This document shows, in pieces, positions 19,613 to 37,849 of a DNA stretch of 64,000 nt. Within the stretch, counting starts at the first letter, position 1; each line of letters starts with the position of its first letter. The DNA is from Candidatus Omnitrophota bacterium (GTDB lineage Bacteria; Omnitrophota; Gorgyraeia; B26-G9), in contig JAHITY010000099.1 in NCBI GenBank assembly GCA_018817165.1, positions 391-64,390 on the forward strand, written 5' to 3'. The translations under genes were made by a program, and so were the position numbers. Below the pieces are notes generated by a model. That model was given only the letters and a program-made list of their open reading frames with translations, had not been told where the DNA came from and made no database searches.

Positions 19613-19633
19613 AAAAAGGTTATATTTGTACTC

Positions 19634-19656
19634 ATCCACCGGCTTAGCCGGTGGAT
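19634..19656 (+). terminator. Rho-independent terminator CCACCGGCT-TA-GCCGGTGG followed by a T-rich run
   Basis: Perfect 9-bp stem immediately after the stop of 19118-19612. Confidence 0.6.
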
Positions 19657-19973
19657 GTTCTTTTCTATTACAAGTTGCGGAATAGAGAGAAGCCAGTAAA
19701 ATCAGAGAGTCCAAAAGGGCTCTCTTTTTTTGTCCGCGAGGGCAAAAACCTCAAAGGGAGTTTATAATCTGATATTATATAGTAGTTCATGTGAAAGTAT
19801 AAGATAAAGCAATGCTTCTATTAAGTAATAAAACATCAATATTGATAGCTTAGTGCAATTATAAGTATTTAAAGCATTATATTTGATATATTGTTGAATA
19901 TTGCAATAATGTATCAAATATGATATATTATATATTATAAGAGTCGTTAAAACTTCAAAAGTGAGGTGTTAAT

Positions 19974-20318
19974 ATGATTAAAAATGAAATGTCAGATGAG
20001 GCAATTTTAAATGAGATTGGATTGCGAATTGCTAGATGTAGGTTAAATAAGAATGTGACTCAATCAGCGCTAGCTATTGAATCAGGGGTTTCAACGCCAA
20101 CCATACAGCGTGCAGAAGGAGGTGCGTCAATTCAATTGGTGAAGTTGATACGAATTTTGCGCGCATTAAACTTGATTGAGAATATAGAATTGCTTGTCCC
20201 TGAACTTGCTTTCAGTCCTCTTCAACAACTTAAGATGAAAGGGAAAATAAGACGCCGCGCTTCATTGCTACATGAAAATGAAAAAGCAGCTGACTGGACA
20301 TGGGGGGATGAGGGATGA
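19974..20318 (+). CDS. hipB: HipB-like XRE-family HTH antitoxin
   Basis: HTH (VTQSALAIESGVSTPTIQRAEGG); its stop overlaps the hipA start (ATGA). Confidence 0.6.
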   Translation: MIKNEMSDEAILNEIGLRIARCRLNKNVTQSALAIESGVSTPTIQRAEGGASIQLVKLIRILRALNLIENIELLVPELAFSPLQQLKMKGKIRRRASLLHENEKAADWTWGDEG

Positions 20319-21610
20319 CTGTTGCAGAAGTAAGACTTTGGGGCAAGAAAATAGGGGCTGTTGCTTGGGATAGCAAAAAGAAAGTTGCGAATTTTGAGTA
20401 CGAGCCTTCCTTTATAAAAAGTGGTATTGAAGTTTCTCCCATAACTATGCCTCTTGATGCCCAAATATATTCCTTTCCAGCTTTGCCATTTGATACTTTC
20501 CACGGGCTTCCTGGATTATTAGCAGATTCTTTGCCAGACAAATATGGAAATGCATTAATTGATGCTTGGCTTGCGAAAGAGGGGAGGTTGCCGGGAAGCT
20601 TTAATTCCGTGGAGCGGCTTTGTTATATTGGAAAACGGGGGATGGGAGCTCTTGAATTTAAGCCTTCACATGAGCCAGGGGGTGGTGTACTAAAAAATAT
20701 CAATATAGAATCCTTGGTTGAACTAGCAAGTGAAATTTTGTCGAAGCGCAACGCTTTTAAAGCTTCTCTTGCAATGCCGACAAGGAAAAAAGCTTTGCAT
20801 GATATATTAAAAGTGGGAACTTCTGCGGGAGGAGCAAGAGCAAAGGCGGTTATTGCTTGGAACCCTAAAACTAAGGAAGTTCGTTCGGGTCAAATTGCTG
20901 CTGAATCAGGCTTTTCTGATTGGATCCTAAAATTTGACGGGGTATCGGCAAATACCGACAAGGAACTTGAAGATACAAAAGGATTTGGTCTTATTGAATA
21001 TGCGTATCATAAAATGGCATTAGGGGCTGGGATACAAATGAGCGAATCTAGTTTGTTATATGAAAATCACAGAAGTCATTTTATGACAAAGAGGTTTGAT
21101 AGAACTGATAAAGGGGAAAAAATACATATGCAATCCTTAAGTGCTCTCGCGCATTATGATTTTAATAGTACGGGGGCATATTCATATGAACAAGCTATTC
21201 AAGTAATGAGAAAATTAAAATTACCGATGATCGAAATAGAAGAACAATTTAGAAGAATTGTCTTTAATATTATAACGAGGAACCAGGATGATCATGTTAA
21301 AAATATAGCCTTCTTAATGAATAAGTTGGGGAAATGGAAACTTTCTCCGGCATTTGATGTTATTTATAGCTATAATCCTTTAGGTATTTGGACGAATATG
21401 CATCAAATGTCTATGAATGGTAAGAGGGATAAATTTAGCAAAGATGATTTTGTGGACTTTGCTAAAAACGCATCAATGAAAAAGGGGATTGCTGAAACTA
21501 TTATTACTCAGGTTAAAGAGGCTGTGAAAAAATGGCCAAATTATGCTAAAGAGGCGGGCATTGCTGAAGAACGACAAAAGTCAATAGCTGCAACTTTCAG
21601 AAAGCTATAA
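20315..21610 (+). CDS. hipA: HipA-family serine/threonine kinase toxin
   Basis: HipA N-domain followed by the catalytic motif ITRNQDDHVKNIAFLM...SPAFDVIYSY (HipA D-x-H-x-K-N). Confidence 0.85.
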   Translation: MTVAEVRLWGKKIGAVAWDSKKKVANFEYEPSFIKSGIEVSPITMPLDAQIYSFPALPFDTFHGLPGLLADSLPDKYGNALIDAWLAKEGRLPGSFNSVERLCYIGKRGMGALEFKPSHEPGGGVLKNINIESLVELASEILSKRNAFKASLAMPTRKKALHDILKVGTSAGGARAKAVIAWNPKTKEVRSGQIAAESGFSDWILKFDGVSANTDKELEDTKGFGLIEYAYHKMALGAGIQMSESSLLYENHRSHFMTKRFDRTDKGEKIHMQSLSALAHYDFNSTGAYSYEQAIQVMRKLKLPMIEIEEQFRRIVFNIITRNQDDHVKNIAFLMNKLGKWKLSPAFDVIYSYNPLGIWTNMHQMSMNGKRDKFSKDDFVDFAKNASMKKGIAETIITQVKEAVKKWPNYAKEAGIAEERQKSIAATFRKL

Positions 21611-21995: not shown

Positions 21996-23216
21996 ATGAT
22001 GAAAGATTGTTTTAATATTTTAATTTTTAATGGTGGTAGCTCATCATTGACTTATAAGATTTTTCAAGTAGATAATTCTAAGAATATTAAGGTTGTTTCT
22101 TATGGAAAAGCGCATAGGGTAGGGGTTAAAGGCGCCAAATCCTCTTTTATCGAACATTGTCTTAATGCTAAGATATCTAAAAATATAACGCCTATTCCAA
22201 GTCATCAAGCTGCGGCTAGGTTAATATTAAAACATATCGAGGATAATTGTATAAAAATAGATTCTATCGGGCATAGGTTTGTGCATGGGGGGAGTCATTT
22301 TAAAGAATCAATTTTGTTGGATAGGAATACTTTAAGTAAACTCTTGTTATGCTTGCCTTTAGCGCCTCTGCATAATCCTATTTCTTTGTCGGTTATTCAG
22401 GAATCAAGAAAATTTTTCCCTGATTTGCCGCAATATGTTGTTTTTGATTCTGCCTTTCATTCCACTATTCCAGCTCATGCTTATACTTATGCTTTGCCTA
22501 AAAGAATAATAAAAAAATTCGGATTTAGAAAATATGGATTCCATGGATTATCTTATTCTTATGTAGCTAGGGAAGTGCCTGTATTTTTAAAAGATAAATC
22601 GAAAAATCTTCGGATCGTTGCTTGTCATCTCGGTACCGGCGGTTCAAGCGTAGCTGCGATTAAAGGCGGCCGATCCGTAGATAATTCTATGGGGTATTCT
22701 CCGCTTTGCGGACTGGTTATGAGTACTCGTTGCGGGGATATTGATCCGATGCTTATGATTTATCTCATGAAAATCTATGACTATCGTCCAGATGAATTAA
22801 TGGATATTTTAAATACGAAAAGCGGTCTTTTGGGAATTTCCGGTTTTTCAAGTGATATTACCGATATAATACAGCGCATTGAAGGAGAAAAAGAAATAGA
22901 CAGGGCGAGCCTTGCTTTGAATATGTATATTCACCGTTTAAGAAAATATATTGGAAGTTATATTGTTGCTCTCGGGGGTGTGGATGCATTAGTATTTACG
23001 GATGATATTGGGGTTCATAACTGGCAGGTAAGAGAAAAGGTTTGCCAGGGCATGGAGTGGGCCGGTATAGTTTTGGACCGTAAGGTAAATCGTAAAATTA
23101 GCGGTAATGAAGTTTCATTGGTAAATGACGCTTGCTCTAAAGTAAAAATAGTGCTTCTTCCTGCTGAAGAAGAATTGATTATTTGTCTTGAGGGAACTAA
23201 ACTGTTGAGGTTGTAA
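21996..23216 (+). CDS. ackA: Acetate/propionate kinase
   Basis: ILIFNGGSSSLTYKIF (ATP motif), FDSAFHSTIP, RKYGFHGLSYSYV, VACHLGTGGSSVAAIKGGRSVDNSMGYSPLCGLVMSTRCGDIDP. Confidence 0.85.
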   Translation: MMKDCFNILIFNGGSSSLTYKIFQVDNSKNIKVVSYGKAHRVGVKGAKSSFIEHCLNAKISKNITPIPSHQAAARLILKHIEDNCIKIDSIGHRFVHGGSHFKESILLDRNTLSKLLLCLPLAPLHNPISLSVIQESRKFFPDLPQYVVFDSAFHSTIPAHAYTYALPKRIIKKFGFRKYGFHGLSYSYVAREVPVFLKDKSKNLRIVACHLGTGGSSVAAIKGGRSVDNSMGYSPLCGLVMSTRCGDIDPMLMIYLMKIYDYRPDELMDILNTKSGLLGISGFSSDITDIIQRIEGEKEIDRASLALNMYIHRLRKYIGSYIVALGGVDALVFTDDIGVHNWQVREKVCQGMEWAGIVLDRKVNRKISGNEVSLVNDACSKVKIVLLPAEEELIICLEGTKLLRL

Positions 23217-24278
23217 ATGATATTAATATTTGATCCATCCTTTTCCGCTTTACGCTGGTGTAATATAGAGGGTGAAAATTGTTCAGAATTTAAATGTGAG
23301 TTTAGCCCGGGATGGTTTGATCGGGTTATGAAAAGTATTGGTAATGTTAAGGAAATCGAAGCCATAGGTTATGTTTTATACCATGGTGGTGAAATTATTA
23401 GAAATCCCGTTGAAATTATTTCTTTGGAATTAATCAAAAAGCTGGAACAATGTGTTAAGTTTGATCCGGAGCGTAATGATTTAACTTTGAAAATTATTAT
23501 GCAATGTATCCGGCAATTTAAAGAAATAAAACATATTTTGCTTTGTGATACTGCCTTTTTTGCGGATTTGCCTGAGGAGGTAAGTACTTATGCGGTTCCT
23601 TATGAATTGCGGGAAAAGGGGATTAGGCGATATGGCAGGCAAGGTTTAAGTCATCAGTGGGCATGGGTGCAAACTAAAGCACTCGCGGAAAAAAATATTT
23701 GTAATGCCATAAGCGTTTATTTGGGCAATCATACCAATATGGTTGCGATAAAAAAAAGTAAAGCCCAAGAGACAAGCGTGGGTTTTACAAGTGTGGAAGG
23801 GATAATATCCACAGTAAGCTGTGGGGATATAGATCCTACTGTTATTTTTCAGATGCATTCTACCGGTATGTCCTTTAGGACAATAAATAGTATATTATCT
23901 CAAGAAAGTGGTTTTAAGGCTTTGTTAGGTAAAAAAAGCAGCTTATCCGATATTTTAAGCAAAAAGGGGAGTTCTAAGGAAATTGCTTTGCGGGAGATTT
24001 ATTGTTACAATATTTTAAAATATTTGGGTGGTTTTATTTCCTCGATTGGCGGGGTGGATACGCTAATATTTATTGGTGAAGATATAAACCAGGCTGTACC
24101 TTTTATTCGTGAAATTTGCTGCAGACTAAGATTTCTTGGGTTAAAACTTAAACGAAGCGTGACTAAAAGTGGAACATTATTTAATTTAACAACAAAGGAT
24201 TCTCCGATCAAAGTTTTTTGTTTAAAATATAATAAATGGAAAGTTTTAGCTTATTGGGCTAAGGAGGGATTGAGATGA
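23217..24278 (+). CDS. Degenerate acetate-kinase-like paralog (probable pseudo-enzyme)
   Basis: Co-linear with AckA (CDTAFFADLPE, VSCGDIDP) but lacks the N-terminal GGSSS phosphate loop and has RQG in place of the catalytic FHG histidine. Confidence 0.6.
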   Translation: MILIFDPSFSALRWCNIEGENCSEFKCEFSPGWFDRVMKSIGNVKEIEAIGYVLYHGGEIIRNPVEIISLELIKKLEQCVKFDPERNDLTLKIIMQCIRQFKEIKHILLCDTAFFADLPEEVSTYAVPYELREKGIRRYGRQGLSHQWAWVQTKALAEKNICNAISVYLGNHTNMVAIKKSKAQETSVGFTSVEGIISTVSCGDIDPTVIFQMHSTGMSFRTINSILSQESGFKALLGKKSSLSDILSKKGSSKEIALREIYCYNILKYLGGFISSIGGVDTLIFIGEDINQAVPFIREICCRLRFLGLKLKRSVTKSGTLFNLTTKDSPIKVFCLKYNKWKVLAYWAKEGLR

Positions 24279-25063
24279 AAAAAGAGAAGCGTTATCTTGA
24301 AGATGTGGGCATGAAAAATTTACCATTTCCCATGAATGTTGTATCCAAAGTTAGTAAAGACGGGCAATTTACGATTGCCGATATTTCTATTTCTGCGCGG
24401 ATTATGCAGGAATTTGAAGCTGATTGGATCGATAAGTTTATCCAGATTGTGCATAACCATCGTGATCGAATAGGGACAAAAACGCTTAAAGTTAATATCA
24501 AGGATTATGTCAAACAGTTGAATGCTTCAACAGTAAAAATTGATTTTAAGTATCCATTTTTTATTGAGAAGCGCACGCCTGTATCCAAAGAAAAATGTTT
24601 AGTTAGGTACCTGTGTACTTATTCGGTTAAGTCTAATGGAGAAGCAAAACCTACTGTTATTTTTAAGATAAAGATTCCCTGTATAACTACATATCCTGTA
24701 TCATTTGAAAAATCCGGGGGGCTTTTTGGTCAATTAAGTACAATGGTTATAGAAACAGAATCAAAAAAAGATATTTATCCTGAGGATCTGGTTGCGCTTG
24801 TGGATAAACATGCTTTAGTTCCGATATACTCATTTTTAACCAGAGAAGACCAGGAGTTTGTTATTCAGAAAATACATTCAGAAAAGAAAACTAGCGTTGT
24901 GCTGGTTGATGAAGTGAAAGATGAACTAGCCCGGATGCAAAATATTGAATCATACAAGGTTGATTGTTTTAACTTTGGGATGCTGCATTCTTATGGGACA
25001 TCTATTGGAACCGCAAAAAGCATGTGGATCCCCGGAAGTTCTTTTGAAGAAAATGAAATATAA
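24275..25063 (+). CDS. Hypothetical protein, possibly a divergent T-fold (FolE2/MptA-like) protein lacking the catalytic HMSR-type motif
   Basis: N-terminal LEDVGMKNLPFPMNVV resembles the FolE2 N-terminal region; no catalytic motif found; its start overlaps the upstream stop, so the three genes look like one operon. Confidence 0.25.
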   Translation: MKKEKRYLEDVGMKNLPFPMNVVSKVSKDGQFTIADISISARIMQEFEADWIDKFIQIVHNHRDRIGTKTLKVNIKDYVKQLNASTVKIDFKYPFFIEKRTPVSKEKCLVRYLCTYSVKSNGEAKPTVIFKIKIPCITTYPVSFEKSGGLFGQLSTMVIETESKKDIYPEDLVALVDKHALVPIYSFLTREDQEFVIQKIHSEKKTSVVLVDEVKDELARMQNIESYKVDCFNFGMLHSYGTSIGTAKSMWIPGSSFEENEI

Positions 25064-25361
25064 TAGTTGATTTTTGCGATAAAAGGGGTCATATTGGAAA
25101 ATGTTGATAGAATAATAGCTTCTAGATACTGGGAGATCTTAAATCAGGACATTTTTTAGTGAAAGAGGAAGCCTGAAATATAATTATAAAGTTTTGAGTT
25201 AAAAGTAAAACCTTCGCCAGAAAAAGGCGGGGGTTTTTGTTTGTTATTTTTGTTGCTTTGGATTTGATGGGGTATCATATTGTATTTTCTTTACAGGGAA
25301 TTATTGGATAAATATTAAACGATACTTTATTATAATAATACAACTGATTTAGAGGAAAGAA

Positions 25362-26711
25362 ATGGTTAAACTTGTTAAAAATAGCGTAAAAATAACTATT
25401 TTTAGAATGGCATTCCCGATGCTTATGGGGACTTTTGCGATGAATGCTTATCATCTTACAGATACTTGGTTTGTGTCAAGATTAGGGACAGAGGCTTTGG
25501 CCGCAATGGCCTTTACTTTTCCGGTTGTTATGTTTCTTAACTTTGTCGCAAGGGGATTAGGTACAGGCTCCATGACTTTGGTTTCGCATGCTTTAGGTCA
25601 AAAGGATGAAAAAAAAGCCGCAGCTCTAACAACTCATGCTTTTTTTCTTGCTGCGATAATAGTTGTTTTTATATCAACTGTTGGGATTATGACAATTCAG
25701 CCATTATTTAGATTTTTGGGAGCAGGCCCAGAAATATTACCGCTGGTAGAAGGGTATATGAGAATCTTGTACTTAGGAATGGTTTTTATGATCATCCCCA
25801 TGATGGCCGGTGATATTATTATTTCTACTGGGGATTCAAAGTCTGCAAGTTTATTGATGCTTGGTGGGGCTGTAATTAATATGATCTTGGATCCTATTTT
25901 GATTTTTGGTTTATTTGGCTTTCCTAAAATGGGTATTAGTGGTGCCGCATTGGGAACAGTGGTTTCGCAGTTTTTTATTTTTGTTGCGGCTTTATTTATT
26001 TTGCATTATCGGCATAATCTGATTTGTTTTTTATCAAATTCCAGAGAATTGATAATTATATCTTGGAAGAAAATACTGCATATAAGTATTCCTAGTATTT
26101 TTAGTATGATGTTAGTTCCTTTATCTCATGGAGTGATCACTCGGATTATTGCAGGTTTTGGATCTGCGGCGGTTGCTGCTACTGGAGCTGCTGTTCGAAT
26201 CGAAATGTTTGCTTTTATGATTCCCATGACAGTGGGCATGTCTTTGATGCCTTTTGTCAGTCAGAATTATGGCGCGGGTAGAATGGATCGAATAAAAGAA
26301 GCGTCTAAGTTTACTATTCTTTTTGCTATTTGTTATGGGTTTTTAATTGTAGTTGTGTTTTATATGATCGCGCCTTATTTTGGTAGGATATTTTCAAAAG
26401 ATCCTGAGGTGATCAAAGTTTTGGTTATGTATATTAGAATAGTTTCGTTTGGATATGGAATGGCAGAAGTTCATCGTTATTCAGGTTTTTATTTAATGGG
26501 GCTGCATAGACCGATTGCCGCGGCAATATTGAATATTGTGCGTGTTTTGGTTCTTTTGATTCCGCTATCATTTTTGGGAGCACGCTTTTTTGGGATTAAA
26601 GGCGCGTTTTTTGGGCGGCTTTTTGCGGATATTCTTGCTGGTATGATCGGAATAATCTGTACAGTTAATGTTCTTAAATCAACGGACTTTCCTAAATCCA
26701 GACATCAATAA
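25362..26711 (+). CDS. MATE-family efflux transporter
   Basis: 449 aa, about 12 predicted TM helices, NorM/DinF-like N-terminal pattern (FPMLMG..AMNAYHLTDTWFVSRLGTEALAA). Confidence 0.75.
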   Translation: MVKLVKNSVKITIFRMAFPMLMGTFAMNAYHLTDTWFVSRLGTEALAAMAFTFPVVMFLNFVARGLGTGSMTLVSHALGQKDEKKAAALTTHAFFLAAIIVVFISTVGIMTIQPLFRFLGAGPEILPLVEGYMRILYLGMVFMIIPMMAGDIIISTGDSKSASLLMLGGAVINMILDPILIFGLFGFPKMGISGAALGTVVSQFFIFVAALFILHYRHNLICFLSNSRELIIISWKKILHISIPSIFSMMLVPLSHGVITRIIAGFGSAAVAATGAAVRIEMFAFMIPMTVGMSLMPFVSQNYGAGRMDRIKEASKFTILFAICYGFLIVVVFYMIAPYFGRIFSKDPEVIKVLVMYIRIVSFGYGMAEVHRYSGFYLMGLHRPIAAAILNIVRVLVLLIPLSFLGARFFGIKGAFFGRLFADILAGMIGIICTVNVLKSTDFPKSRHQ

Positions 26712-27250
26712 GCAAAATATTTGAATGACAAAGGTTATTCCTAGTATAGGAATGTGTGACAGCTATAGAATGCAAAGAATGTTTTAACAAGAAAATAATT
26801 ATTATTATCGGGGTACTCTTTGTTGCGTAAGGGACGGTTACATTATTAGGTTTAGCCATATTTAATTGGCAAAGCAGGGACTTGAAAAAAAATAATAAAA
26901 TCAGAAAGCCCCAGAATCATTTTTTAAATTTCCAGGATTAAAGATAAACATTGTTTTATTCTTTTCTAGTCATATAATTATATTTAGCTTATCCTGGGGG
27001 TAAAAACTTGTTAATAAAAAAAACAAGGGCCGACATTTATATTTTTTATGAGAGGAATTAGCGTATTATTTAACAGGGGTTTCCTTGCAATATTCTTTGG
27101 GAAAAGGGGATGGTGTTAAATTGAATATTAATCGTATTTCATCCGAAAGTTAATAATCGGCGCTTAAGTAAAAAAATGAAGAATATTTTTGATGAATAAT
27201 TTAAAAGAATAAAAAATTGATTTATGGAATAATGGGAGGCAAATTAAGCT

Positions 27251-27466
27251 ATGTCGATAAAAAGCATAAATGGATGTATTGGCTGCGGTACATGCGTAAA
27301 GACATGCCCCACAGATGTAATTCGCTTAGATTTAAAAACTGGAAAGGCTAAAATTACCTTTCCAGAGGATTGTCAGATATGTCATTTATGTAGGATGTAT
27401 TGTCCTGTTGATGCTATTACTATCTCACCGGAGAAATCAATTCCGGTTATTATTTCCTGGGGGTAA
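27251..27466 (+). CDS. 2x[4Fe-4S] ferredoxin
   Basis: CIGCGTCVKTCP and CQICHLCRMYCP cluster motifs. Confidence 0.85.
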   Translation: MSIKSINGCIGCGTCVKTCPTDVIRLDLKTGKAKITFPEDCQICHLCRMYCPVDAITISPEKSIPVIISWG

Positions 27467-27469
27467 AAA

Positions 27470-28114
27470 ATGAAAGAAAAATCAAGATTAAATTATCTTA
27501 TTCCCTGGCTGCTATTTTATCTAGTAATCCCATTTTCATATTTGCTTCTTGGTAATTTTCCAAAACGGACTGTATTAAAAAATGCTATTTCTTTTTTGAC
27601 CTTAGGCGCGTATTTTATCATGCTTGGACAGTTTTATCTGAGCCGTAGCAATGTGATTATGCTGAGAGGACAGAAAATGTCTAAGGTTTTTAAACTGCAT
27701 AAGGTTCTGAGCTATATTTTTATTCCGATTCTTATATCGCATCCTTTTTTAATCGTTGTCCCTCGATTTTTTGAATCAGGAGTGGAGCCTATCGAAGCGT
27801 TCAGAACAATAATGACAACCTTTGGAAGCAGGGGAATTGTTCTTGGTATTTTTGCGATGGTTCTTATGCTTTTTCTCGGCATAACCTCGATTTTTCAAAA
27901 AAAAATGCAAAGAAACTATAGATCGTGGAGAATATCACACGGGCTTTTATCCAGTGTTTTTATTGTTTTAGCAACATGGCATGCTGTTGATCTTGGACGG
28001 CATACAGATATTATTCTGTCGGCATATATGATAATTCTTTTGACAGGGGGTATTTTCCTTTTAATAAGAACCTATTTTATAGAGATGCAAAGAGGAGATT
28101 CTAGAAATGGATGA
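27470..28114 (+). CDS. Polytopic membrane protein, possibly the di-heme b-type or ferric-reductase-like anchor for the downstream flavoprotein
   Basis: Several hydrophobic helices with conserved His residues (ISHPFL, RISHGLL, ATWHAV); overlaps the flavoprotein gene start. Confidence 0.35.
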   Translation: MKEKSRLNYLIPWLLFYLVIPFSYLLLGNFPKRTVLKNAISFLTLGAYFIMLGQFYLSRSNVIMLRGQKMSKVFKLHKVLSYIFIPILISHPFLIVVPRFFESGVEPIEAFRTIMTTFGSRGIVLGIFAMVLMLFLGITSIFQKKMQRNYRSWRISHGLLSSVFIVLATWHAVDLGRHTDIILSAYMIILLTGGIFLLIRTYFIEMQRGDSRNG

Positions 28115-29834
28115 AAAAGCTGAAAATAAAATTTCACGTCGACAATTTCTGGGACTTGCGGGTGGAGTTATCGGAGCAGGAGTACTTGCTTCAATAGGAT
28201 TGAATCCTTGGTTGACTAAAAATAAAAGAGAACTTGATTTGGACAGTATAGAATATCAAGAAAATGAAACCGACATTCTTGTTATTGGCGGGGGAATGGC
28301 AGGTCTTTTTGCGGCAGTAAAAGGTTATGATGCTGGTTCAAAAGTGCTTATGGTATCCAAGGGACGGCTTGGGACTTCAGGGCAAACACCTTTTGCTAAA
28401 GGAATGTTCGTTTATGATTCCTCTCAAGAAAAATTGAGTCTTGATGCGTTTACGGCTAAAGTTTCTGCTTCGGCTTTAAAGACAAATAATCCTGTTTATA
28501 CGCGACAGATGGCCGAACATTCAATGGCTAGAGTTAATGAATTGAAGAAATGGGGATTTTTTTCTTCCGTCTTTTGTCACAATGCTTTTATGAAGCCGAT
28601 TAAAGAAAGAAATATTCCTGTGATGGAACGAATTATGATTACTCATCTGATCAAGGGAAATGGGAAAATCGCAGGAGCAGCAGGTTTTAGCTTCGACGAT
28701 GCAAAGATTCATATTTTTAAGTCAAAATCTGTTATTTTGTGTACAGGTGCGGGTGGTTTTAAACCCAATGGATTTCCTATTTGTGATCTTACTCATGATG
28801 GGACGGTGATGGCTTATAATATTGGAGCTAAGGTGACGGGTAAGGAGTGGAACGACGGGCATTCCGGTATGGCAGAAAATGCCGCGGACTGTTATAACGG
28901 TTGGCACGGGATGTTCGAAAGAACTCCGGGTGTTACCGGTATAGAAGTTCATCACGATCTTGGAGTAGATGAAAACTATCAGGCTTATATGTTGGGAAAT
29001 CCTGTTAAGAGTGGGCCGGGTCGGTCTGCGGGGAAAACAGTTCAAGGTGGTCCGTACACTCCCGAAGAGTTTATTAGGCAAATGCCTTCAGGCGGAGATG
29101 GTCCTAGTGTGGATGGTGGTCATGAAGGTGGGGCGCCGAGTGGTCCGAGTGGTGCCTCTGTTGGTGGTTCCTCTGCTGGAATGTCTATTCATAAGTCTGA
29201 AGGTTTAGTTCCAATAAATGAGAAAGGAGAGTCAAATATCCCGGGTCTTTACGCCGCAGGCGATGCTTTGGGTTCATATATGGCAGGAGCAATCTATACT
29301 CAGATTGGCTCATCTCTTTCGGGTTCGGCAGTTCAGGGGGCGATTGTTTCGGAAGCTGCTGCAGAATATTGCAAGAAAACCGAGTCATCAGAAATATCTA
29401 CAAAATCTCTGACTATCATTAAAAAAGAAATTCTTGCGCCATTGAAGAGGGATACAGGATATAGCCCGGCATGGGTAACTCAAATTCTTCAGGGGATAAT
29501 GATTCCAAATTTTGTTATCTATATTAAGAAAGAACGTATTCTTAATGCGGCATTGGCTTATGTTGAAGAACTTCGTGATCACCATGTTCCTATGCTTAGA
29601 GCTGCTAATTTGCATGAGCTTAGATTGGCGCATGAAACTTCAAATATGATTATAAATGCTGAAATGAAATTAAGGGCGTCTTTAATGCGTAAAGAAAGCC
29701 GTTGTTCTCATTACCGGCTTGATTATCCTGATATTGATTATCAAAATTGGCAGGCATGGATAAATATTTCTAAGGATGTCAATGGTTTTATGAAGCTGGA
29801 AAAACAAGCATTTAGCAAATGGCCGGGGTATTAA
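28107..29834 (+). CDS. Tat-exported FAD-dependent oxidoreductase of the fumarate reductase / succinate dehydrogenase flavoprotein family
   Basis: Twin-arginine signal (SRRQFLGLAGGVIGAGVLAS), FAD motif DILVIGGGMAGLFAAV, C-terminal RCSHYRLDYPDIDYQNW as at the FrdA/SdhA C-terminus, and an internal Gly/Ser/Pro-rich low-complexity insert. Confidence 0.7.
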   Translation: MDEKAENKISRRQFLGLAGGVIGAGVLASIGLNPWLTKNKRELDLDSIEYQENETDILVIGGGMAGLFAAVKGYDAGSKVLMVSKGRLGTSGQTPFAKGMFVYDSSQEKLSLDAFTAKVSASALKTNNPVYTRQMAEHSMARVNELKKWGFFSSVFCHNAFMKPIKERNIPVMERIMITHLIKGNGKIAGAAGFSFDDAKIHIFKSKSVILCTGAGGFKPNGFPICDLTHDGTVMAYNIGAKVTGKEWNDGHSGMAENAADCYNGWHGMFERTPGVTGIEVHHDLGVDENYQAYMLGNPVKSGPGRSAGKTVQGGPYTPEEFIRQMPSGGDGPSVDGGHEGGAPSGPSGASVGGSSAGMSIHKSEGLVPINEKGESNIPGLYAAGDALGSYMAGAIYTQIGSSLSGSAVQGAIVSEAAAEYCKKTESSEISTKSLTIIKKEILAPLKRDTGYSPAWVTQILQGIMIPNFVIYIKKERILNAALAYVEELRDHHVPMLRAANLHELRLAHETSNMIINAEMKLRASLMRKESRCSHYRLDYPDIDYQNWQAWINISKDVNGFMKLEKQAFSKWPGY

Positions 29835-30150
29835 GATTAGGGGTTTATTTGATTATTTATTATACTAAATAAGATGCTTGATTGCGAAGCATTAAAGTTA
29901 TGTATAGGTCCTGTTATTTATATGCTTTAATAATAGAAGTTAAATCGGCTAATACCAGAAAGGTTATAAAACAAAAACAACAGAGTTTTTGATGCAGGGA
30001 TAAGATATAATTACATTAAGGGATAGTCTTTGGGCTATCCCTTTTTTTATAGATTTTTTATTAAGATGGAAACTTTTTTAAAAAAATAGTATCTAAATAA
30101 GTATAAGAGGGATTAATAAGGATATTAAAGGACTAATTAAAGGAGCTGAT

Positions 30151-30318
30151 ATGAATAAACCAATTCTAATAACTATTGTATTATTAATTTCCGCTACGTT
30201 TGTATTTAACTTGCAGGATCAACCCAAAAACCAAAATGAAATGCATTTAAAAATCCAGAAACGAGCAGCACAAGCAGTTATAGTAATTAAAGATTCCTCT
30301 GAGTTTGAAAAAATATAA
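30151..30318 (+). CDS. Small (55-aa) membrane or secreted protein
   Basis: ATG preceded by AGGAG at 30141-30145 (5-nt spacing); hydrophobic segment ILITIVLLISATFVF; found by hand translation, below the 60-aa cutoff of the ORF track. Confidence 0.4.
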   Translation: MNKPILITIVLLISATFVFNLQDQPKNQNEMHLKIQKRAAQAVIVIKDSSEFEKI

Positions 30319-30363
30319 AATAAATAATTTACCCAAAATCTTGATTAACAATAAGGCTATCCA

Positions 30364-30930
30364 ATGAAAAAAATAAAAAACAATACAGAAGCAATATTAG
30401 ATAAATATGCATCGTATGCGGCACTGATTCCTGCTATTAGTTTAATCATTTTTATGCTAATGCATGCTTTTTTGGGAATTTTAAACTTTGCGCATGATAT
30501 TTCAAGAATGATTAATACCCGAGATTTCGGCAATTTTCATCCTCAATCGCTCATATGGCTAGAGGTAGTAGCAACTATTATAATTCTCCTTAAAGCTTAT
30601 AAAGTTTTAATGTCTTATGTGAAAAATCACCATCTTATGCTTAAGGATTTATTAGAAATAACTTTTACTGCTTCCTGGTTAGAGCTTTTATTTAATGCTT
30701 CAAAATATGAATTAGATATGAAAATTATTTTTCTAGTTTTAGGATTATCAAGTATATTAATTTACTTAATATTCTATTCAAAAATAACGTCAATAAATGA
30801 ACTCTCCCATAAAAAAGAGGACGCTATAGCTAATTTTGAATCTTTTTCTCAAAAAAATGAAAGTAATAGAATAATACGGGACATCTATTGGAACCGCAAA
30901 AAGCATGTGGATTCCCGGGACTTCTTTTGA
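30364..30930 (+). CDS. Hypothetical membrane protein; its 3' end runs into a duplicated copy of the 3' end of gene 24275-25063 in another frame
   Basis: ORF track; TM-rich; 30878-30954 duplicates 24995-25071. Confidence 0.4.
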   Translation: MKKIKNNTEAILDKYASYAALIPAISLIIFMLMHAFLGILNFAHDISRMINTRDFGNFHPQSLIWLEVVATIIILLKAYKVLMSYVKNHHLMLKDLLEITFTASWLELLFNASKYELDMKIIFLVLGLSSILIYLIFYSKITSINELSHKKEDAIANFESFSQKNESNRIIRDIYWNRKKHVDSRDFF

Positions 30931-31098
30931 AGAAAATGAAATATAATAGTTGATATTTTTGATCTCAAACTTGAAACTAATTTAACCGCGGAGTTAAAAA
31001 ATACGGGAGTCCTTTTGGGCTCCCTGTTTTTTTAGAGTCTTTTGCTTTATCCTCCAGAAGCTCCCAAAGAAAAATCTTGACAGAATTATATTTTTGTT

Positions 31099-31134
31099 TT
31101 ATTATGTGAATGTGAAACCACATTCACATAATAA
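31099..31134 (+). promoter_or_regulatory. Candidate TetR operator, a 16-bp perfect inverted repeat TTATTATGTGAATGTG-aaac-CACATTCACATAATAA overlapping the -10 of TTGACA(31077)-N17-TATTAT
   Basis: Perfect palindrome directly upstream of the TetR gene start at 31149. Confidence 0.65.
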
Positions 31135-31148: not shown

Positions 31149-31748
31149 ATGAAAAGCAGTAAAGAAAAAACAGTTGTCAGGCAAGCGCAGATAATTGCTG
31201 CTGCTCTAGATGTAATTGCCAAGGATGGTTTTAAAGGTTTAACGATTGCGGCTATTGCCAAGAAAGTCGGTATTACCAATAGCAATGTTTATCGCCATTT
31301 TTCCGGCAGAGAAGCGATTGTTGAGGCAATCGTGAGCGAAGTTGAGATTAGTTTGCAAAAGATAATAAGTGAGGCATGTAGTAAAAATAATTTGCCTAGC
31401 CAATGTCTTGAGAATATTTTTTTGAAACACATTGAATTTTTAGAGACGCATAGAGGAATACCGCGGGTTATTTTCTCTGATGAAATGTATTCAGGGAATG
31501 AATTGCTAATTAGGAGGTTAAGGGGAATTGTTAAGCAGTACATGGGGGGAATAAAGAAGGTATTGAAAAAAGGGGTAGAGGAAAAAGAATTTGACTCAGG
31601 GTTAGATATTGATGCCGCGGCTATGACTTTTATGGGGTTTATTCAATCAACAGCTTTACAATGGATTTTATTTCGCTATTCGTTTTCTCCCAAAAAAAGA
31701 GGTAAAAAGATATGGAAAATATATTTAAGAGGAATATACTCAAGATAA
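31149..31748 (+). CDS. TetR-family transcriptional repressor
   Basis: N-terminal HTH IIAAALDVIAKDGFKGLTIAAIAKKVGITNSNVYRHF. Confidence 0.8.
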   Translation: MKSSKEKTVVRQAQIIAAALDVIAKDGFKGLTIAAIAKKVGITNSNVYRHFSGREAIVEAIVSEVEISLQKIISEACSKNNLPSQCLENIFLKHIEFLETHRGIPRVIFSDEMYSGNELLIRRLRGIVKQYMGGIKKVLKKGVEEKEFDSGLDIDAAAMTFMGFIQSTALQWILFRYSFSPKKRGKKIWKIYLRGIYSR

Positions 31749-33085
31749 TCAGCCTGGTTTTTCTCGGGACAATTGGTTTTGGTTCATGTTTATATGCTGA
31801 GATCATCGAAATCAGGCAAGTTTCTTTGTCTTTAGAGGATGCGATCTCATTGGCTTTTAAGAATAATAAAGATATTCTTATCCAGGAAAATGAAATCAAA
31901 GCCGCGAAAGCGAGGATTTTAGGAGCAAGAGGTGAATTTTTGCCAAAGGTTAATATTAATGGTGGCTATACGCACAGAGATTCAGTGATGAATTTGGGCG
32001 CGGCACAAGCCAGTAATTCAGATAAAGACCCTGGCGTGTTTGTGGGATATGAAGATGAAAAAAGGGTCGGCGTATCTGTAGAACAGGCACTATTTAAAGG
32101 TGGGAAGAATATCGCGAATTTAAAACAAGCAAACTTGAGGCTTAAAGTTCAGAAAGAGAATCTGCGTTTACGAAAGCTGGCTGTTGAGTTTGAAACCCAG
32201 CGACTCTATTATGGGATACTTCTCGCTTATGAGACTGAACGCATAGCTCAAGAATTACTCGATCAGGCGCAAGCACATTATGAGATTGTTAAGAAAAAAT
32301 TCGAGCAGGGAGCGGTGTCAAAATTTGACCTGCTGCAATCAAAAGTTCAGGTTTCCAAAGTAGTGCCGCAGCTTGTGCGGGCTCAAAACGCGAAAGAATT
32401 GATAATTGAAGAGTTTAAGAAGTTAATCGGTATAGATAGAAAGGAAATTGTTTTATTTCAGGATAAGTTGACTTATTCCGCAATTGATATAGATGAAGCA
32501 AAATTTTTGCAACTGGCTTATGAGCGAAGGCCGGATGTAATCATAAAAGCCCTTGAGATCAAGATTGGACAGCAGGGAATTTTAGCGGCAAAGGCGAGCG
32601 GAAGACCAGGAGTTAATGCCGGGTTTAACTATGATTATAAATCAGATGATGCCGAAGCGCTTTTTAACTCAAGGCATAATAATTGGAATATTGGGATTTC
32701 CATAAGTATTCCTGTGTTTGACGGCTTTTCAGCTAAGGCAAAGGTCGATGAAGCAAAAGCAAAATACGCGCAGGCAGAGTTGAGTAAGCAAGACGCGGCA
32801 GAAACAGTTTCGTTGGAAGTGAGCCAGGGAGTATTAAATCTAATTCAAGCCCAGGCAATTATTGAATCACAGCAAGACAGCGTTGAAGCAGCCAAGGAAG
32901 CGGTAAAGATAGCAGAAGTCAGATATGAAAACGGCGGAGGGACAAATATTGATGTCTTAGATACGCAAATATCCTTGAGTCAGATAGAGGAAAATCTTAG
33001 CCAAGGAATTTACGAGTATCTTATGGGGCATGCCTATTTAAATAAAACTATGGGCGTTAATTTATTTGAGGAGGAGACAAAATGA
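31712..33085 (+). CDS. TolC-like outer-membrane efflux protein (OMF family)
   Basis: Signal peptide, two repeated coiled-coil/beta-barrel halves, about 457 aa, sits in an efflux operon. Confidence 0.7.
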   Translation: MENIFKRNILKIISLVFLGTIGFGSCLYAEIIEIRQVSLSLEDAISLAFKNNKDILIQENEIKAAKARILGARGEFLPKVNINGGYTHRDSVMNLGAAQASNSDKDPGVFVGYEDEKRVGVSVEQALFKGGKNIANLKQANLRLKVQKENLRLRKLAVEFETQRLYYGILLAYETERIAQELLDQAQAHYEIVKKKFEQGAVSKFDLLQSKVQVSKVVPQLVRAQNAKELIIEEFKKLIGIDRKEIVLFQDKLTYSAIDIDEAKFLQLAYERRPDVIIKALEIKIGQQGILAAKASGRPGVNAGFNYDYKSDDAEALFNSRHNNWNIGISISIPVFDGFSAKAKVDEAKAKYAQAELSKQDAAETVSLEVSQGVLNLIQAQAIIESQQDSVEAAKEAVKIAEVRYENGGGTNIDVLDTQISLSQIEENLSQGIYEYLMGHAYLNKTMGVNLFEEETK

Positions 33086-33912
33086 AGAAAAAAATAAAAA
33101 TAATTTTGATCATAGTAGTTATTGGCTTTATTTCGATAAATATTTTTAAGCATTTTCAAAATAAAACGGCTAGTGATTCTTTGCCTATTTCCGGGACAGT
33201 TGAGGCCACTGAGGTCCGCTTATCTTTTCAGGTGGGAGGAAAAATTAAAGAAATTCTGACAGATGAAGGTAAATTTGTCAAGCAGGGAGAAGTCTTGTCC
33301 AGCTTAGACAAAGAGGAGCTTGGGGCAATAAAAAAACAGTCAGAGGCAGCGTATGAAGAAGCGAAACTTAACTACGAAAGGCTGGAAGAGGATTATTCCC
33401 GCGCGGAAAATCTCTATAAAGCCGGGGCAGTGCCGCAACAACAACGAGATGCTGTAAAAACAAATTTCGGTGTTGCTAAAGCCAAAATGGAGACGCTGCA
33501 ATCATCTTTGGATTTGACAAATTTAAGATTAAGCTACGCGGATTTACGTTCACCTTTAGACAGTTTTATTCTGGTGAAGAGTGCTGAAGTGGGGGAAGTT
33601 ATTCAGCCGGGGGCTTCGGTTTTTACCGTGATTGATTTAAAGAATGTATGGATTACGGGATATATCAATGAAACAGATTTGGGTAAAGTTAAACTTAATC
33701 AGGAGGCGAATATTCAGATAGATACTTATCCGAATAAGAAATATAAGGGAAGGGTGTCATTTATTTCTCAACAGTCGGAATTTACGCCCAAATATATTCA
33801 GACAGTTGAAGAAAGAACCAAACTTGTGTATCGGATTAAGATCAATGTAGATAATTCTGATTTTGAATTAAAGCCGGGAATGCCAGCGGATGCTTATATC
33901 CAAATAAGGTGA
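33082..33912 (+). CDS. HlyD-family membrane fusion protein (periplasmic adaptor)
   Basis: N-terminal TM, coiled-coil, biotinyl-lipoyl-like and beta-barrel segments; YbhG-like operon position. Confidence 0.7.
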   Translation: MKKKIKIILIIVVIGFISINIFKHFQNKTASDSLPISGTVEATEVRLSFQVGGKIKEILTDEGKFVKQGEVLSSLDKEELGAIKKQSEAAYEEAKLNYERLEEDYSRAENLYKAGAVPQQQRDAVKTNFGVAKAKMETLQSSLDLTNLRLSYADLRSPLDSFILVKSAEVGEVIQPGASVFTVIDLKNVWITGYINETDLGKVKLNQEANIQIDTYPNKKYKGRVSFISQQSEFTPKYIQTVEERTKLVYRIKINVDNSDFELKPGMPADAYIQIR

Positions 33913-33919
33913 GCAATAA

Positions 33920-34648
33920 ATGATTAAAACAAATAGATTAACTCGAAAGTTTGCTAATGTGAAGGCGGTTGATGCTCTGTCACTTGAAATCCCCAAGGGA
34001 GAAATTTTTGGTTTGGTCGGTCCTGACGGTGCCGGTAAAACTACGACGATGCGCTTGTTAACCGGCATCTTAGAGCCGACAAGCGGTCAGGCGTGGGTAA
34101 ACGGAAGCGACATTGTCAAAGACTCTGAGAAAATAAAAGAAAATATTGCCTATATGTCGCAACGCTTTGGGCTATACGGGGATTTGACCGTAATGGAAAA
34201 TATTAATTTTTACGCGGACATTTATTCTGTTCCGGCAAAAGAAAGGCCTGAGCAAATAAAGCGGCTTTTGAATTTTTCAAATTTAACGCCGTTTAAGGAT
34301 AGGCTGGCCCGGAACCTTTCGGGCGGGATGAAACAAAAACTGGGGCTTGCTTGCGCGCTTGTGCACACTCCGCAAGTTCTTTTCTTGGATGAACCGACGA
34401 ATGGGGTTGACCCTGTCTCCCGAAGAGATTTTTGGCGAATCCTTTATCAGCTTTTAAAAGAAAAAGTGACGATATTTTATTCAACGGCCTATTTAGATGA
34501 AGCCGAGCGGTGTAAAAGAGTCGGGCTTATCCATAAAGGTAGGCTGCTTCGATGTGATGTTCCTTTGAATATAAAAAAAGAAAGAAACGCTAAAACTCTT
34601 GAGCAAGCATTTATCTCTATCATAAGCGAGTATAAAGATGAAAAGTGA
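33920..34648 (+). CDS. ABC transporter ATP-binding protein 1
   Basis: Walker A GPDGAGKTT, signature LSGGMKQK, Walker B LFLDEPTNGVD. Confidence 0.85.
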   Translation: MIKTNRLTRKFANVKAVDALSLEIPKGEIFGLVGPDGAGKTTTMRLLTGILEPTSGQAWVNGSDIVKDSEKIKENIAYMSQRFGLYGDLTVMENINFYADIYSVPAKERPEQIKRLLNFSNLTPFKDRLARNLSGGMKQKLGLACALVHTPQVLFLDEPTNGVDPVSRRDFWRILYQLLKEKVTIFYSTAYLDEAERCKRVGLIHKGRLLRCDVPLNIKKERNAKTLEQAFISIISEYKDEK

Positions 34649-35591
34649 AAAAGCAGTTGAAGTCATAAATCTAGAAAAAAAATTCGGAAAGTTTACAGCG
34701 GTCAACCGAATTAGTTTTGCGGTCAATAAAGGGGAAATTTTTGGTTTTCTCGGGCCTAATGGCGCGGGAAAATCGACGACGATTAGGATGTTGTGCGGGA
34801 TTCTTTCTCCCACGTCAGGCGATGGGCATGTGGGAGGCAACAATATTATAAAAGAACAAGAAGCGATAAAACAAAACATTGGATATATGTCACAGAAGTT
34901 TTCTTTGTATGATGATCTGACTGTTGAGGAAAATATTAACTTTTATAGCGGGATATACCGAATAAGTGATCAAAAAAAAGCGGAAAGAAAAGAGTGGGTT
35001 ATTAAAATGGCCGGGCTAGAGGATCTAAGGTCCAGCCGGACAGCGATTCTTGCCGGAGGATGGAAACAGCGTCTGGCCTTGGGGTGCGCAATTATTCATG
35101 AACCCAAAATCGTATTCTTAGATGAACCGACATCCGGGGTTGATCCGATATCCCGACGCGATTTTTGGATACTTATTAAGGAAATGGCGAAAAATGGGGT
35201 AACGGTTTTTGTGACAACGCATTATATGGATGAAGCGGAAAATTGTAATCGGATAGCGCTGATCTATAAAGGTAATATTATTGCTTTGGGCAGTCCGCAT
35301 GAATTAAAAACTGAAATTATGCGGGAAGAGGTGTTAGAAATAATAATTGATACTCCGGAGGATTGGATTGAACGTTTGATGAAGCTGGAAGTTGTTAAAG
35401 AGATTGCTTTGTTTGGAAACGCGCTTCACGCGGTTGTGGAAAACGCTGAATTGTCTATACCGCTGATCAAAGACTTTTTAACAAATGAGAAAGCGAGTAA
35501 TTATAAGATCGAAAAGATTGAACCATCTTTGGAAGATGTGTTTGTTTCACTGATCGAGTCTTATGATAAAAATGAGGAAAAGATAAAGTGA
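34638..35591 (+). CDS. ABC transporter ATP-binding protein 2
   Basis: Walker A GPNGAGKST, signature variant (LAGGWKQR), Walker B VFLDEPTSGVD. Confidence 0.85.
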   Translation: MKSEKAVEVINLEKKFGKFTAVNRISFAVNKGEIFGFLGPNGAGKSTTIRMLCGILSPTSGDGHVGGNNIIKEQEAIKQNIGYMSQKFSLYDDLTVEENINFYSGIYRISDQKKAERKEWVIKMAGLEDLRSSRTAILAGGWKQRLALGCAIIHEPKIVFLDEPTSGVDPISRRDFWILIKEMAKNGVTVFVTTHYMDEAENCNRIALIYKGNIIALGSPHELKTEIMREEVLEIIIDTPEDWIERLMKLEVVKEIALFGNALHAVVENAELSIPLIKDFLTNEKASNYKIEKIEPSLEDVFVSLIESYDKNEEKIK

Positions 35592-36718
35592 ATTTAATCA
35601 GAGTTAAGGCTATTGCCCAAAAAGAATTTATTCATATTTTCCGTGATCCAAGGAGCCTGGGGATGGCGATTGCTATCCCAATGCTTTTATTGATTTTATT
35701 TGGTTATGCCTTGACCTTAGATGTGGATAATGTCCCATTGGTGATATGGGACCAGGATAAAACACAAATGTCGCAAGATTACATTTTGGATTTTAAAAAT
35801 TCGCCGTATTTTAATATCGTCGGATATTTTGAGGGATATCAAGATCTTCAGGCAGCTATTGATAAAAATCAGGCGCTGATGGCCATGGTTGTTCCCACTG
35901 ATTTTTCTCGGCGAATTGAATCTAATCAGAATACGCCGGTGCAACTTTTGGTTGATGGCAGTGATTCAAACACCGCGACGATTGCTATCGGGTATGTTAC
36001 CGCGGTTACTGCGAAATATAATAAGAATCTTATTGTTAATGAGTTGTCGCAGTTAGGGATTAAAGATATGACGCCTATCGATATGCGCTCAAGGGTTTGG
36101 TTTAATGCTGATTTAAAGAGTAGAAATTACATTATTCCGGGACTTATTGCCGTGATTATGATGGTTATCGCCGCCTTGTTGACGTCATTAACTGTGGCTA
36201 AAGAATGGGAATCCGGAACAATGGAACAGCTGATCTCAACCCCGGTTAAATCAAATGAACTTATTCTGGGAAAACTCATTCCTTATTTTACGATTGGGCT
36301 GTTTGATGTTGTTGTAGCGGTCGCGATGGGGCAGTTTTTATTTCATGTGCCATTACGGGGAAATGTGGCTTTGCTGTTTATTTTAAGCGGATTCTTTTTG
36401 GTCGGGGCATTGAGTTTGGGGATGCTTATTTCTATTGTGACTAAGAATCAACTTGTGGCAAGTCAGTTGGCCATGGTTACGACATTCTTGCCCGCGTTTT
36501 TACTCTCGGGGTTTATGTATTCTATCGCGAATATGCCCAAAGCCATACAAGTGTTAACACATCTTATTCCGGCACGCTATTTTGTTGTAATTTTGAAAGG
36601 GATTTATTTAAAAGGGGTGGGAATGAAAGTCCTGGGTATACAGGTTTTTTATTTGTTTTTGTTCGCTGTTATTGTTCTGAATGTTGCCAATAGAAAATTC
36701 AAAAAGAAGGTCGGCTAA
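35588..36718 (+). CDS. ABC-2 type transporter permease (YbhS/YbhR-like)
   Basis: 376 aa; N-terminal FRDPRSLGMAIAIP; six C-terminal TM helices. Confidence 0.7.
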   Translation: MNLIRVKAIAQKEFIHIFRDPRSLGMAIAIPMLLLILFGYALTLDVDNVPLVIWDQDKTQMSQDYILDFKNSPYFNIVGYFEGYQDLQAAIDKNQALMAMVVPTDFSRRIESNQNTPVQLLVDGSDSNTATIAIGYVTAVTAKYNKNLIVNELSQLGIKDMTPIDMRSRVWFNADLKSRNYIIPGLIAVIMMVIAALLTSLTVAKEWESGTMEQLISTPVKSNELILGKLIPYFTIGLFDVVVAVAMGQFLFHVPLRGNVALLFILSGFFLVGALSLGMLISIVTKNQLVASQLAMVTTFLPAFLLSGFMYSIANMPKAIQVLTHLIPARYFVVILKGIYLKGVGMKVLGIQVFYLFLFAVIVLNVANRKFKKKVG

Positions 36719-37849
36719 ATGTTTGAACGGATAAAACATATTCTTATCAAAGAATTTATTCAGATCTTTCGCGATCCGCGGATGAAAGCGGTTATATTTA
36801 TCATGCCGCTTATCCAAGTCATGGTGTTTGGCTATGCTGTTACCACGGATGTTAAGGATATTTCAACCGCGATTTATGACTTAGATCAATCCGCACAGAG
36901 TCGAAGCTTAATCAGGGAATTTACTTATTCGGGGTATTTTGATCTGAAGCGAAATATTACTACAGATAAAGAACAGGAGAGTTTGATAGATAAATCGTTT
37001 GTTAATGCGGTTATTCGGATTAATCGGGGATTTGCCCAAGACCTTGGCGCAAATAGGACGGCGCAGGTGCAGTTAATCGTTGATGGAACGGATTCTAATA
37101 CAGCGTCGATAATATTAAATTATGCTAATCAGATTGTAGAAAAATATTCTTTGGGGATCCTGGATAAACGCGCTAAAACGCTGCTGCACAGACCTAATGA
37201 TTTTCCGAAAATTGAGCTTAAGACCCGGGCATGGTTTAATGATAATTTGGAATCAAGGAATTTTTATGTTCCGGGGGTTATCGCCCTGATCGTAATGCTG
37301 ATCACGCTGCTTTTGACATCGATGGCTATAGTGCGGGAAAAAGAAATTGGAACGATCGAACAGCTGATCGTTAGCCCTATCCGCTCTTATGAACTGATTA
37401 TTGGTAAGCTGCTGCCTTTTGCGGTAATAGGCTTAGTCGACGCGGTCTTAGTAACATTAGTCGGGGTCTTGTGGTTTAAGGTGCCGATTCAAGGAAATAT
37501 CCTTCTGCTCTTTGGTTCAACTTGTTTATATCTTTTAACTACTTTAGGTATTGGATTATTTATATCGACATTAGCCTCAACTCAGCAGGAAGCGATGATG
37601 TCGACTTTTTTCTTTTATTTTCCGGCGGTGCTGCTTTCGGGATTTATGTTCCCCATCGCGAATATGCCAAAAATAATTCAATATGTCACTTATCTTAATC
37701 CGCTGAGGTATTTTTTGGTTATTCTTAGAGGGATTTTTCTGAAAGGCAGCGGCTTTAATATTTTATGGCCGCAAATGCTGGCGCTTTTGATTATGGGGGT
37801 GGGGATTCTTATTTTGAGTTCAATGAGATTTCAGAAGCGGTTGGGATAG
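36719..37849 (+). CDS. ABC-2 type transporter permease (YbhS/YbhR-like), paralog
   Basis: 376 aa, co-linear with the preceding permease (FRDPRMKAVIFIMP...). Confidence 0.7.
   Translation: MFERIKHILIKEFIQIFRDPRMKAVIFIMPLIQVMVFGYAVTTDVKDISTAIYDLDQSAQSRSLIREFTYSGYFDLKRNITTDKEQESLIDKSFVNAVIRINRGFAQDLGANRTAQVQLIVDGTDSNTASIILNYANQIVEKYSLGILDKRAKTLLHRPNDFPKIELKTRAWFNDNLESRNFYVPGVIALIVMLITLLLTSMAIVREKEIGTIEQLIVSPIRSYELIIGKLLPFAVIGLVDAVLVTLVGVLWFKVPIQGNILLLFGSTCLYLLTTLGIGLFISTLASTQQEAMMSTFFFYFPAVLLSGFMFPIANMPKIIQYVTYLNPLRYFLVILRGIFLKGSGFNILWPQMLALLIMGVGILILSSMRFQKRLG

Follow-up and report, generated by a model that had tools for sequence, protein, structure and literature searches.

In the 64,000-nt stretch of a Candidatus Omnitrophota bacterium analyzed here (GenBank assembly GCA_018817165.1, contig JAHITY010000099.1, positions 391 to 64,390; hereafter the window), the last 77 nt of a gene of the FolE2 (GTP cyclohydrolase IB, GCYH-IB) family occur twice in direct orientation, once as the functional end of the intact gene (copy A) and once as an orphan fragment (copy B) on the far side of a 5.8-kb block carrying an efflux pump and a redox operon (Table 1). 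About an even chance is given to the reading that this repeat is the scar of one recombination event, in which the 3' end of the gene was displaced by homology-anchored recombination without a dedicated recombinase, with homology-facilitated illegitimate recombination and Campbell-type integration grouped together as possible routes.

The two copies differ at three positions (25030/30913, C/T; 25036/30919, A/G; and 25038/30921, G/C) and are spaced 5,883 nt apart; when the weaker flanks are included, the repeat extends over 24992-25080 and 30875-30963 (89 nt, 92% identity). Inside it, the copies match perfectly over 35 nt (24995-25029) and again over 33 nt (25039-25071); each of these perfect blocks has two occurrences in the window versus none expected from 100 shuffles. 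Copy A comprises FolE2 codons 240-262, the stop codon and 8 nt, and the identity between the copies ceases at this point, 8 nt past the stop codon. Read in its own frame, copy B encodes YGTSIGTAKSMWIPGTSFEENEI followed by a stop codon (the intact gene ends in GSSFEENEI and a stop codon); since the same frame contains a stop codon two codons upstream, and a start codon is absent, copy B is an orphan FolE2 3' fragment. An earlier reading made from the sequence without database searches (the sequence-only reading) had described the recurrence of the 77-bp gene end with three mismatches, its persistence as coding sequence in its own frame, and its out-of-frame fusion to the ORF (open reading frame) at 30364-30930, and all of these observations, including the coordinates of the repeat, are reproduced by the repeat comparison and the translations.

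In the FolE2 frame, the mismatches correspond to a synonymous change at an Ile codon, a synonymous change at a Gly codon, and a Ser/Thr replacement. This pattern, which comes from only three sites, hints that copies A and B both evolved as coding sequence; it is also the pattern that would be expected of two alleles and, to that extent, supports displacement. Ser is the commoner residue among homologues at the Ser/Thr position, favoring copy A as the ancestral state, and the DNA of one related locus (L069) has the base of copy B at one mismatched position and that of copy A at a second, a split that singles out neither copy. Taken together, the low divergence between the copies (3.9%) and the host-like composition of the block suggest that the donor belonged to the same lineage or to a very close relative of it. 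Two stretches that resemble the gene end in degenerate form, one at 25174-25205 (78% over 32 nt, 120 nt past copy A) and one at 30842-30877 (~80% over 21-29 nt, abutting copy B on its upstream side), were rejected since neither is an outlier against the window-wide empirical null; one of the two is nominally significant against simple shuffles, and both are probably chance matches in AT-rich DNA, with remnants of older events a less likely alternative.

Three features of 3'-end displacement are found together in the window, namely an intact conserved anchor gene, an orphan 3' end beyond the insert, and homology that stops at the gene boundary. From this anatomy we infer what the donor locus looked like, in which order the events took place and which enzymology was involved. 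The starting point would be closely related genomes with differing versions of the acetate-kinase/FolE2 locus: in version 1, FolE2 would be followed by its terminator and a TetR-efflux operon, and in version 2 by another terminator and the genes for the MATE transporter, ferredoxin, haem-b protein, Tat flavoprotein, and the small ORFs of 55 and 188 codons (ORF55 and ORF188). Version-2 DNA would have entered a version-1 cell, where its left end was exchanged homologously inside the conserved operon, while its right end, within the 3' region of ORF188, was joined illegitimately to codon 240 of the resident FolE2 gene, as in homology-facilitated illegitimate recombination. Alternatively, the same product would be reached through a Campbell-type single crossover of a circularized fragment. 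In the outcome, which the window shows, FolE2 is intact with a new 3' end and terminator, its old last 77 nt lie 5.9 kb downstream as a non-coding orphan together with the old terminator and the TetR promoter and operator, and ORF188 has acquired 17 residues from the orphan read out of frame. For the cell, the consequences would be a FolE2 gene with a new terminator, a non-coding orphan, an ORF188 product with an accidental 17-residue tail, and a TetR-controlled efflux operon that would retain its own promoter and predicted operator.

Table 1. Features of the FolE2 end, the bracketed block and the displaced operon, in window coordinates
Feature	Coordinates	Strand	Evidence or remark
Intact FolE2/GCYH-IB-family gene, 262 aa, last of a three-gene operon	24275..25063	+	Pfam PF02649, E 1e-23
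Repeat copy A, functional gene end	24995..25071	+	Repeat comparison
Terminator-like hairpin and T-run, 144 nt past the FolE2 stop codon, first feature of the block	25207..25237	+	Hairpin search
MATE efflux transporter	25362..26711	+	Pfam MatE, E 3e-54; TIGR00797 above cut-off
2x[4Fe-4S] ferredoxin, 71 aa	27251..27466	+	Profile match
Ferric_reduct-type haem-b membrane protein	27470..28114	+	Pfam PF01794, E 8e-13
Flavoprotein with Tat signal (SRRQFLG)	28107..29834	+	Nearest solved relatives are alpha subunits of adenosine-phosphosulfate (APS)/phosphoadenosine-phosphosulfate (PAPS) reductases
Terminator-like hairpin after the flavoprotein operon	30018..30043	+	Hairpin search
ORF55, small ORF, 55 aa, low GC, without family match	30151..30318	+	ORF list, profile search
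ORF188, small membrane-protein ORF, 188 aa	30364..30930	+	Final 17 codons consist of out-of-frame copy B sequence
Right recombination joint, ORF188 3' region against FolE2 codon 240	30877..30878	+	Joint also present in Logan contig L068
Repeat copy B, orphan FolE2 3' fragment	30878..30954	+	Repeat comparison, translation
Terminator-like hairpin and T-run, 59 nt past the copy B stop codon	31005..31024	+	Hairpin search
Promoter-like site TTGACA-17-TATTAT, with inverted repeat	31077..31134	+	Motif search and direct sequence reading
Displaced operon: TetR, outer-membrane factor, HlyD-type adaptor, two ABC (ATP-binding cassette) ATPases, two ABC-2 permeases	31149..37849	+	

The surroundings of the two copies fit this account in several respects. 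Each copy is followed, at a natural distance, by a terminator of its own (144 and 59 nt past the respective stop codons), so that the copies have the appearance of gene ends from two versions of one locus with different downstream genes, and the hairpin behind copy B is probably the original terminator of the FolE2 operon. The natural-looking terminator of each copy and the right junction that cuts through an ORF fit recombination between two versions of a locus better than an evolved attP site. At the right joint, sequence in common with that preceding copy A is confined to TA or TAC, and the joint must have arisen by illegitimate recombination in every scenario considered here; the fact that ORF188 runs out of frame into copy B suggests an arbitrary breakpoint. 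ORF188 itself is a real but rare gene, with a sole homologue (P0122; 158 aa, 51% identity over residues 12-146) that is located in an unrelated context. Downstream of the orphan, the promoter-like site ahead of TetR matches a sigma-70-like consensus at 11/12 positions, and a perfect 16-nt inverted repeat (31099-31114 and 31119-31134; TTATTATGTGAATGTG-aaac-CACATTCACATAATAA) overlaps its -10 hexamer and is likely to be the TetR operator.

The FolE2-family gene is the last member of an operon (21996-25063) in which it follows genes for an acetate kinase (Ack) and a divergent acetate-kinase paralogue. Its product has a 100% identical counterpart in a Candidatus Omnitrophica metagenome-assembled genome (MAG) and scores below the NCBIfam FolE2 cut-off, and FolE2 chains in the Protein Data Bank (PDB) align with residues 8-241; therefore, the repeat covers a subfamily-specific C-terminal tail beyond the fold. 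An extra tail, NFGMLHSYSTSIGTEKSMWIP, is strongly conserved among the FolE2-like proteins. From these sequence features, the protein may have a function other than that of GTP cyclohydrolase IB. A PTPS/QueD-like gene is present near the operon (19118-19612). The comparison set consisted of 68 loci around FolE2 homologues and other relatives, including ~45 non-redundant FolE2 loci, and the Ack-Ack-FolE2 block was found in 25 of the 41 related loci whose upstream DNA was long enough for the comparison; the operon occurs in Omnitrophota, Planctomycetota, Spirochaetota, Ignavibacteriota and Elusimicrobiota. The closest relatives (FolE2 amino acid identity of 76-85%) all retain Ack-Ack-FolE2, each with different genes downstream (e.g., MazE, an ECF (extracytoplasmic function) sigma factor and a MacB-type efflux system in L002, L005 and L010; a convergent ketoacyl synthase gene in L007 and L034; and a secreted protein in L069 and L013). 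In every relative examined, synteny breaks off at the end of FolE2, with a conserved anchor beside fast gene turnover, and such a breakpoint behind a conserved operon may be counted in favor of displacement.

The window also contains adjacent DprA and ComM-like (Mg-chelatase family) genes (58898-61295). DprA and ComM are associated with natural transformation in other bacteria, and the presence of these genes lends weak support to the uptake of donor DNA by transformation.

Several observations weigh against displacement. Neither a donor version (FolE2 followed by the MATE gene, with no orphan) nor an empty site (FolE2 followed directly by TetR) was found in any collection scanned, so that the model has to be carried by the anatomy. 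As a process, homology-facilitated illegitimate recombination occurs rarely, and its usual effect is a loss of recipient DNA, not a duplication within the anchor; the visible microhomology at the joint amounts to only 2-3 nt. The synonymous bias stems from three sites and has a roughly estimated P of ~0.16. In addition, all three mismatches fall within 9 nt between the perfect blocks (P = 0.027 under random placement), a cluster that displacement does not predict and that is accounted for by no model considered. Lastly, an integrase could be encoded elsewhere in the genome, outside the window.

The source of the sequence is a MAG, and contigs assembled independently break within the repeat, both of which would be compatible with an assembly artefact or with a chimera of two strains joined at a common k-mer. 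Such an explanation is nevertheless highly improbable. Three Logan contigs, generated from two sequencing runs with a different assembler, match the window at 100% identity: L001 (24170-25992; run SRR7067536) passes straight through copy A, L068 (25042-30907) contains the block plus exactly 30 nt of perfect block at either end (k-1, with k=31), and L028 (30925-38152) begins 30 nt ahead of the end of copy B. Breaks located exactly k-1 nt into the perfect blocks are the expectation for a genuine two-copy repeat in a de Bruijn graph. Both joints are located inside these contigs (L068 contains the ORF188/FolE2 joint, and the transition from copy A to the block is contained in L001 and L068), and no common k-mer is available that could have mis-joined the left joint of copy B. 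Contig L001 crosses copy A uninterrupted, whereas run SRR6514274 shows a k=31 break; the missing break is likely to reflect low coverage in SRR7067536, and a variant without copy B in that sample is possible.

The k=31 graph of run SRR6514274 is the same for the integrated form as for a circle plus an empty site, and in this respect it agrees equally well with the explanation that the sequence-only reading had proposed, i.e., site-specific integration into a gene 3' end. In its most plausible form, this explanation would make the block a decayed island without an integrase, similar to a cis-mobilizable element (CIME), in which an attP site mimicked the FolE2 3' end, the copies are attL and attR, and the recombinase has been lost or acts in trans. 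This is a tentative possibility, less probable than displacement. The geometry is the classic one, with a direct repeat of the 3' end of a conserved gene that remains intact, and the perfect 35-nt and 33-nt blocks could contain a crossover core. The cargo is of an accessory type and includes a horizontally mobile operon, the integrase could sit outside the window, and the definition of a CIME is precisely that attL and attR are kept and the integration genes are lost (PMC5704250). Of the original claim, the insertion of DNA at the 3' end of a gene that stayed intact is upheld; for attL and attR sites proper, the repeat itself is the sole support.

The searches for the machinery and partners of such an island were negative. 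No recombinase, excisionase, relaxase or replication gene was detected in the block, in ~25 kb on either side, or among the window ORFs of at least 150 aa (Pfam and PHROG profiles), and the statement of the sequence-only reading that the window has no integrase holds for tyrosine and serine recombinases in these ORFs. The sole transposase-like gene in the window is an IS200-like Y1 gene (61717-62376, 219 aa, Pfam E 1.5e-14) located 31 kb from the repeat, and IS200-type Y1 transposases are not known to produce repeats like the 77-nt pair. A transposon with a target-site duplication was likewise rejected, as a duplication of 2-15 bp would be expected and the repeat measures 77 nt, with no terminal inverted repeats and no transposase in the block. 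The window contains no tRNA or transfer-messenger RNA gene as a potential att site, and a scan of its whole length against Rfam returned no RNA family. Motifs common to both inner ends of the block were limited to one 11-mer and one 12-mer, both A/T-rich and unconvincing.

Relatives and mobile elements were also surveyed, by protein-guided FolE2 scans (19 loci from genome contigs and 34 from metagenome contigs) and eleven exact-protein look-ups. A second FolE2 3' fragment is present in the window only and in none of the 68 loci. Among the 25 commonest families listed for the 96 ORFs downstream of FolE2 in the ~45 non-redundant loci, no recombinase family was matched by at least two ORFs, a listing that could have overlooked a lone integrase. 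Viral contigs (searched with both repeat blocks) and phage and plasmid collections (distant blastn with the whole region) yielded no attP-like copy, and the only matches were two weak ones from plasmids, both to the flavoprotein gene. An exact scan of metagenome contigs with the 29-nt repeat core gave 0 matches, and searches of viral, phage, plasmid, genome and metagenome data revealed no autonomous partner element with the same att site. Neither the block nor the TetR flank was found beside FolE2 among the relatives scanned, all of which have a FolE2 identity of at most 85%, and no locus among the 68 carries a MATE, ferredoxin or flavoprotein gene beside FolE2, in a sample that includes no close relatives. 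With no second fragment, shared recombinase family or attP-like copy found, the available data do not show FolE2 to be a target of recurrent integration.

Other properties of the locus also speak against an island. The attP postulated for an island would overlap with an ORF, and the left end of the block resembles a native downstream region of FolE2 with its terminator. Since the 71-kb MAG contig spans both copies, the integrated form is the main form. The base composition of the block is indistinguishable from that of the host, with values of GC3 (GC content at third codon positions) of 0.30-0.32 versus 0.29-0.31 in neighboring genes, and a tetranucleotide distance of 0.143 between block and window, where equal-sized pieces of the window span 0.112-0.181. 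Nothing shows that the 5.8-kb block is an active mobile element. The more specific proposal that it represents a non-autonomous integrative element of Omnitrophota, with the FolE2-family gene's 3' end serving as its att site, and that it is moved in trans by a recombinase encoded elsewhere and carries an efflux pump together with a Tat-exported APS-reductase-like module between cells of the phylum, is considered unlikely.

The host-like composition and the absence of mobility genes in the regions searched would also be expected if the block were native and the repeat had originated in place, through a tandem duplication of 24995-30877 followed by deletion of most of the second copy. Tandem duplications are frequent in bacteria. 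This origin is nonetheless quite improbable, as it calls for two illegitimate events instead of one, leaves the terminator 59 nt past the stop codon of the orphan unexplained, and requires the deletion to have ended, by coincidence, only a few nt from the FolE2 stop codon (~40 in 5,883, an estimated <1%).

The gene content of the block is as the sequence-only reading had listed it, with a MATE pump, a ferredoxin, a haem-b membrane protein, a Tat flavoprotein and two small ORFs. The ferredoxin/haem-b/flavoprotein operon is present at 65-79% amino acid identity in Spirochaetota, Desulfobacterota, Bacteroidota and other phyla, many of them of anaerobes, and therefore travels horizontally; the block ferredoxin is 85% identical to that of the same operon in three other loci (L031-L033). 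Homologous flavoprotein operons are usually followed by TatC, TatA and TatB genes, which are missing from the copy in the window, and never lie beside FolE2. On sequence grounds, the operon (27251-29834) looks like an uncharacterized, horizontally mobile periplasmic reductase module. The right end of the block (30044-30954, with ORF55 and ORF188) has a GC content of 0.29 and a GC3 of 0.23-0.25, clearly below the rest of the block and the window, and given this low-GC end the block itself may be composite. On the other side of the FolE2 operon, the window is rich in defense and toxin-antitoxin genes (1979-21610), including two C5 cytosine methylases flanking a BpuJI-type endonuclease, a PIN_12 protein, two AbiEi/AbiEii pairs and HipB/HipA, as well as a DUF6933 protein and a 1,329-aa protein without a family match.

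The scar records the gain or re-shuffling of an efflux pump and a periplasmic redox module behind a conserved operon in an uncultured lineage of Omnitrophota, and the DNA downstream of the Ack-Ack-FolE2 operon is a hotspot of gene turnover. Its significance beyond the Omnitrophota genome at hand is little, apart from the caution that a direct repeat of a gene end alone is not evidence for an integrase-driven island. Demonstrated excision would make the block one of the rare documented cases of a mobile element in the phylum.

Compared with known systems, the locus has partial counterparts in three. It is similar to CIMEs and decayed islands in having direct repeats of a gene 3' end around accessory genes and no integration or transfer genes in the regions searched; it is unlike them in that no related autonomous element, integrase or recurrent target was found in the searches described above, in that its composition is not foreign, and in that its right end interrupts an ORF. 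As in Campbell-type integration of a circle by a single homologous crossover, the homologous stretch is directly duplicated on both sides of the insert, whereas plain Campbell integration would need a prior illegitimate event to generate a circle containing the FolE2 3' end. A stretch of 77 nt is short for RecA-dependent recombination. The third counterpart is provided by type VI secretion system (T6SS) effector-immunity arrays in Vibrio cholerae, where orphan 3' ends behind a conserved anchor have been attributed to homology-facilitated illegitimate recombination (PMC5361080), and by Rhs loci, for which that article gives the same displacement mechanism, citing PMC2935791. The FolE2 locus differs from these systems in representing a single event rather than an array, in having a metabolic anchor instead of a toxin gene and only 77 nt displaced, and in being known without population data on alternative versions. 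It resembles them in that the anchor is intact with a new 3' end, non-homologous genes lie behind it, the old end is orphaned downstream, and an integrase is absent from the window ORFs searched, and the scar at the FolE2 end is a further instance of a kind already known from these loci.

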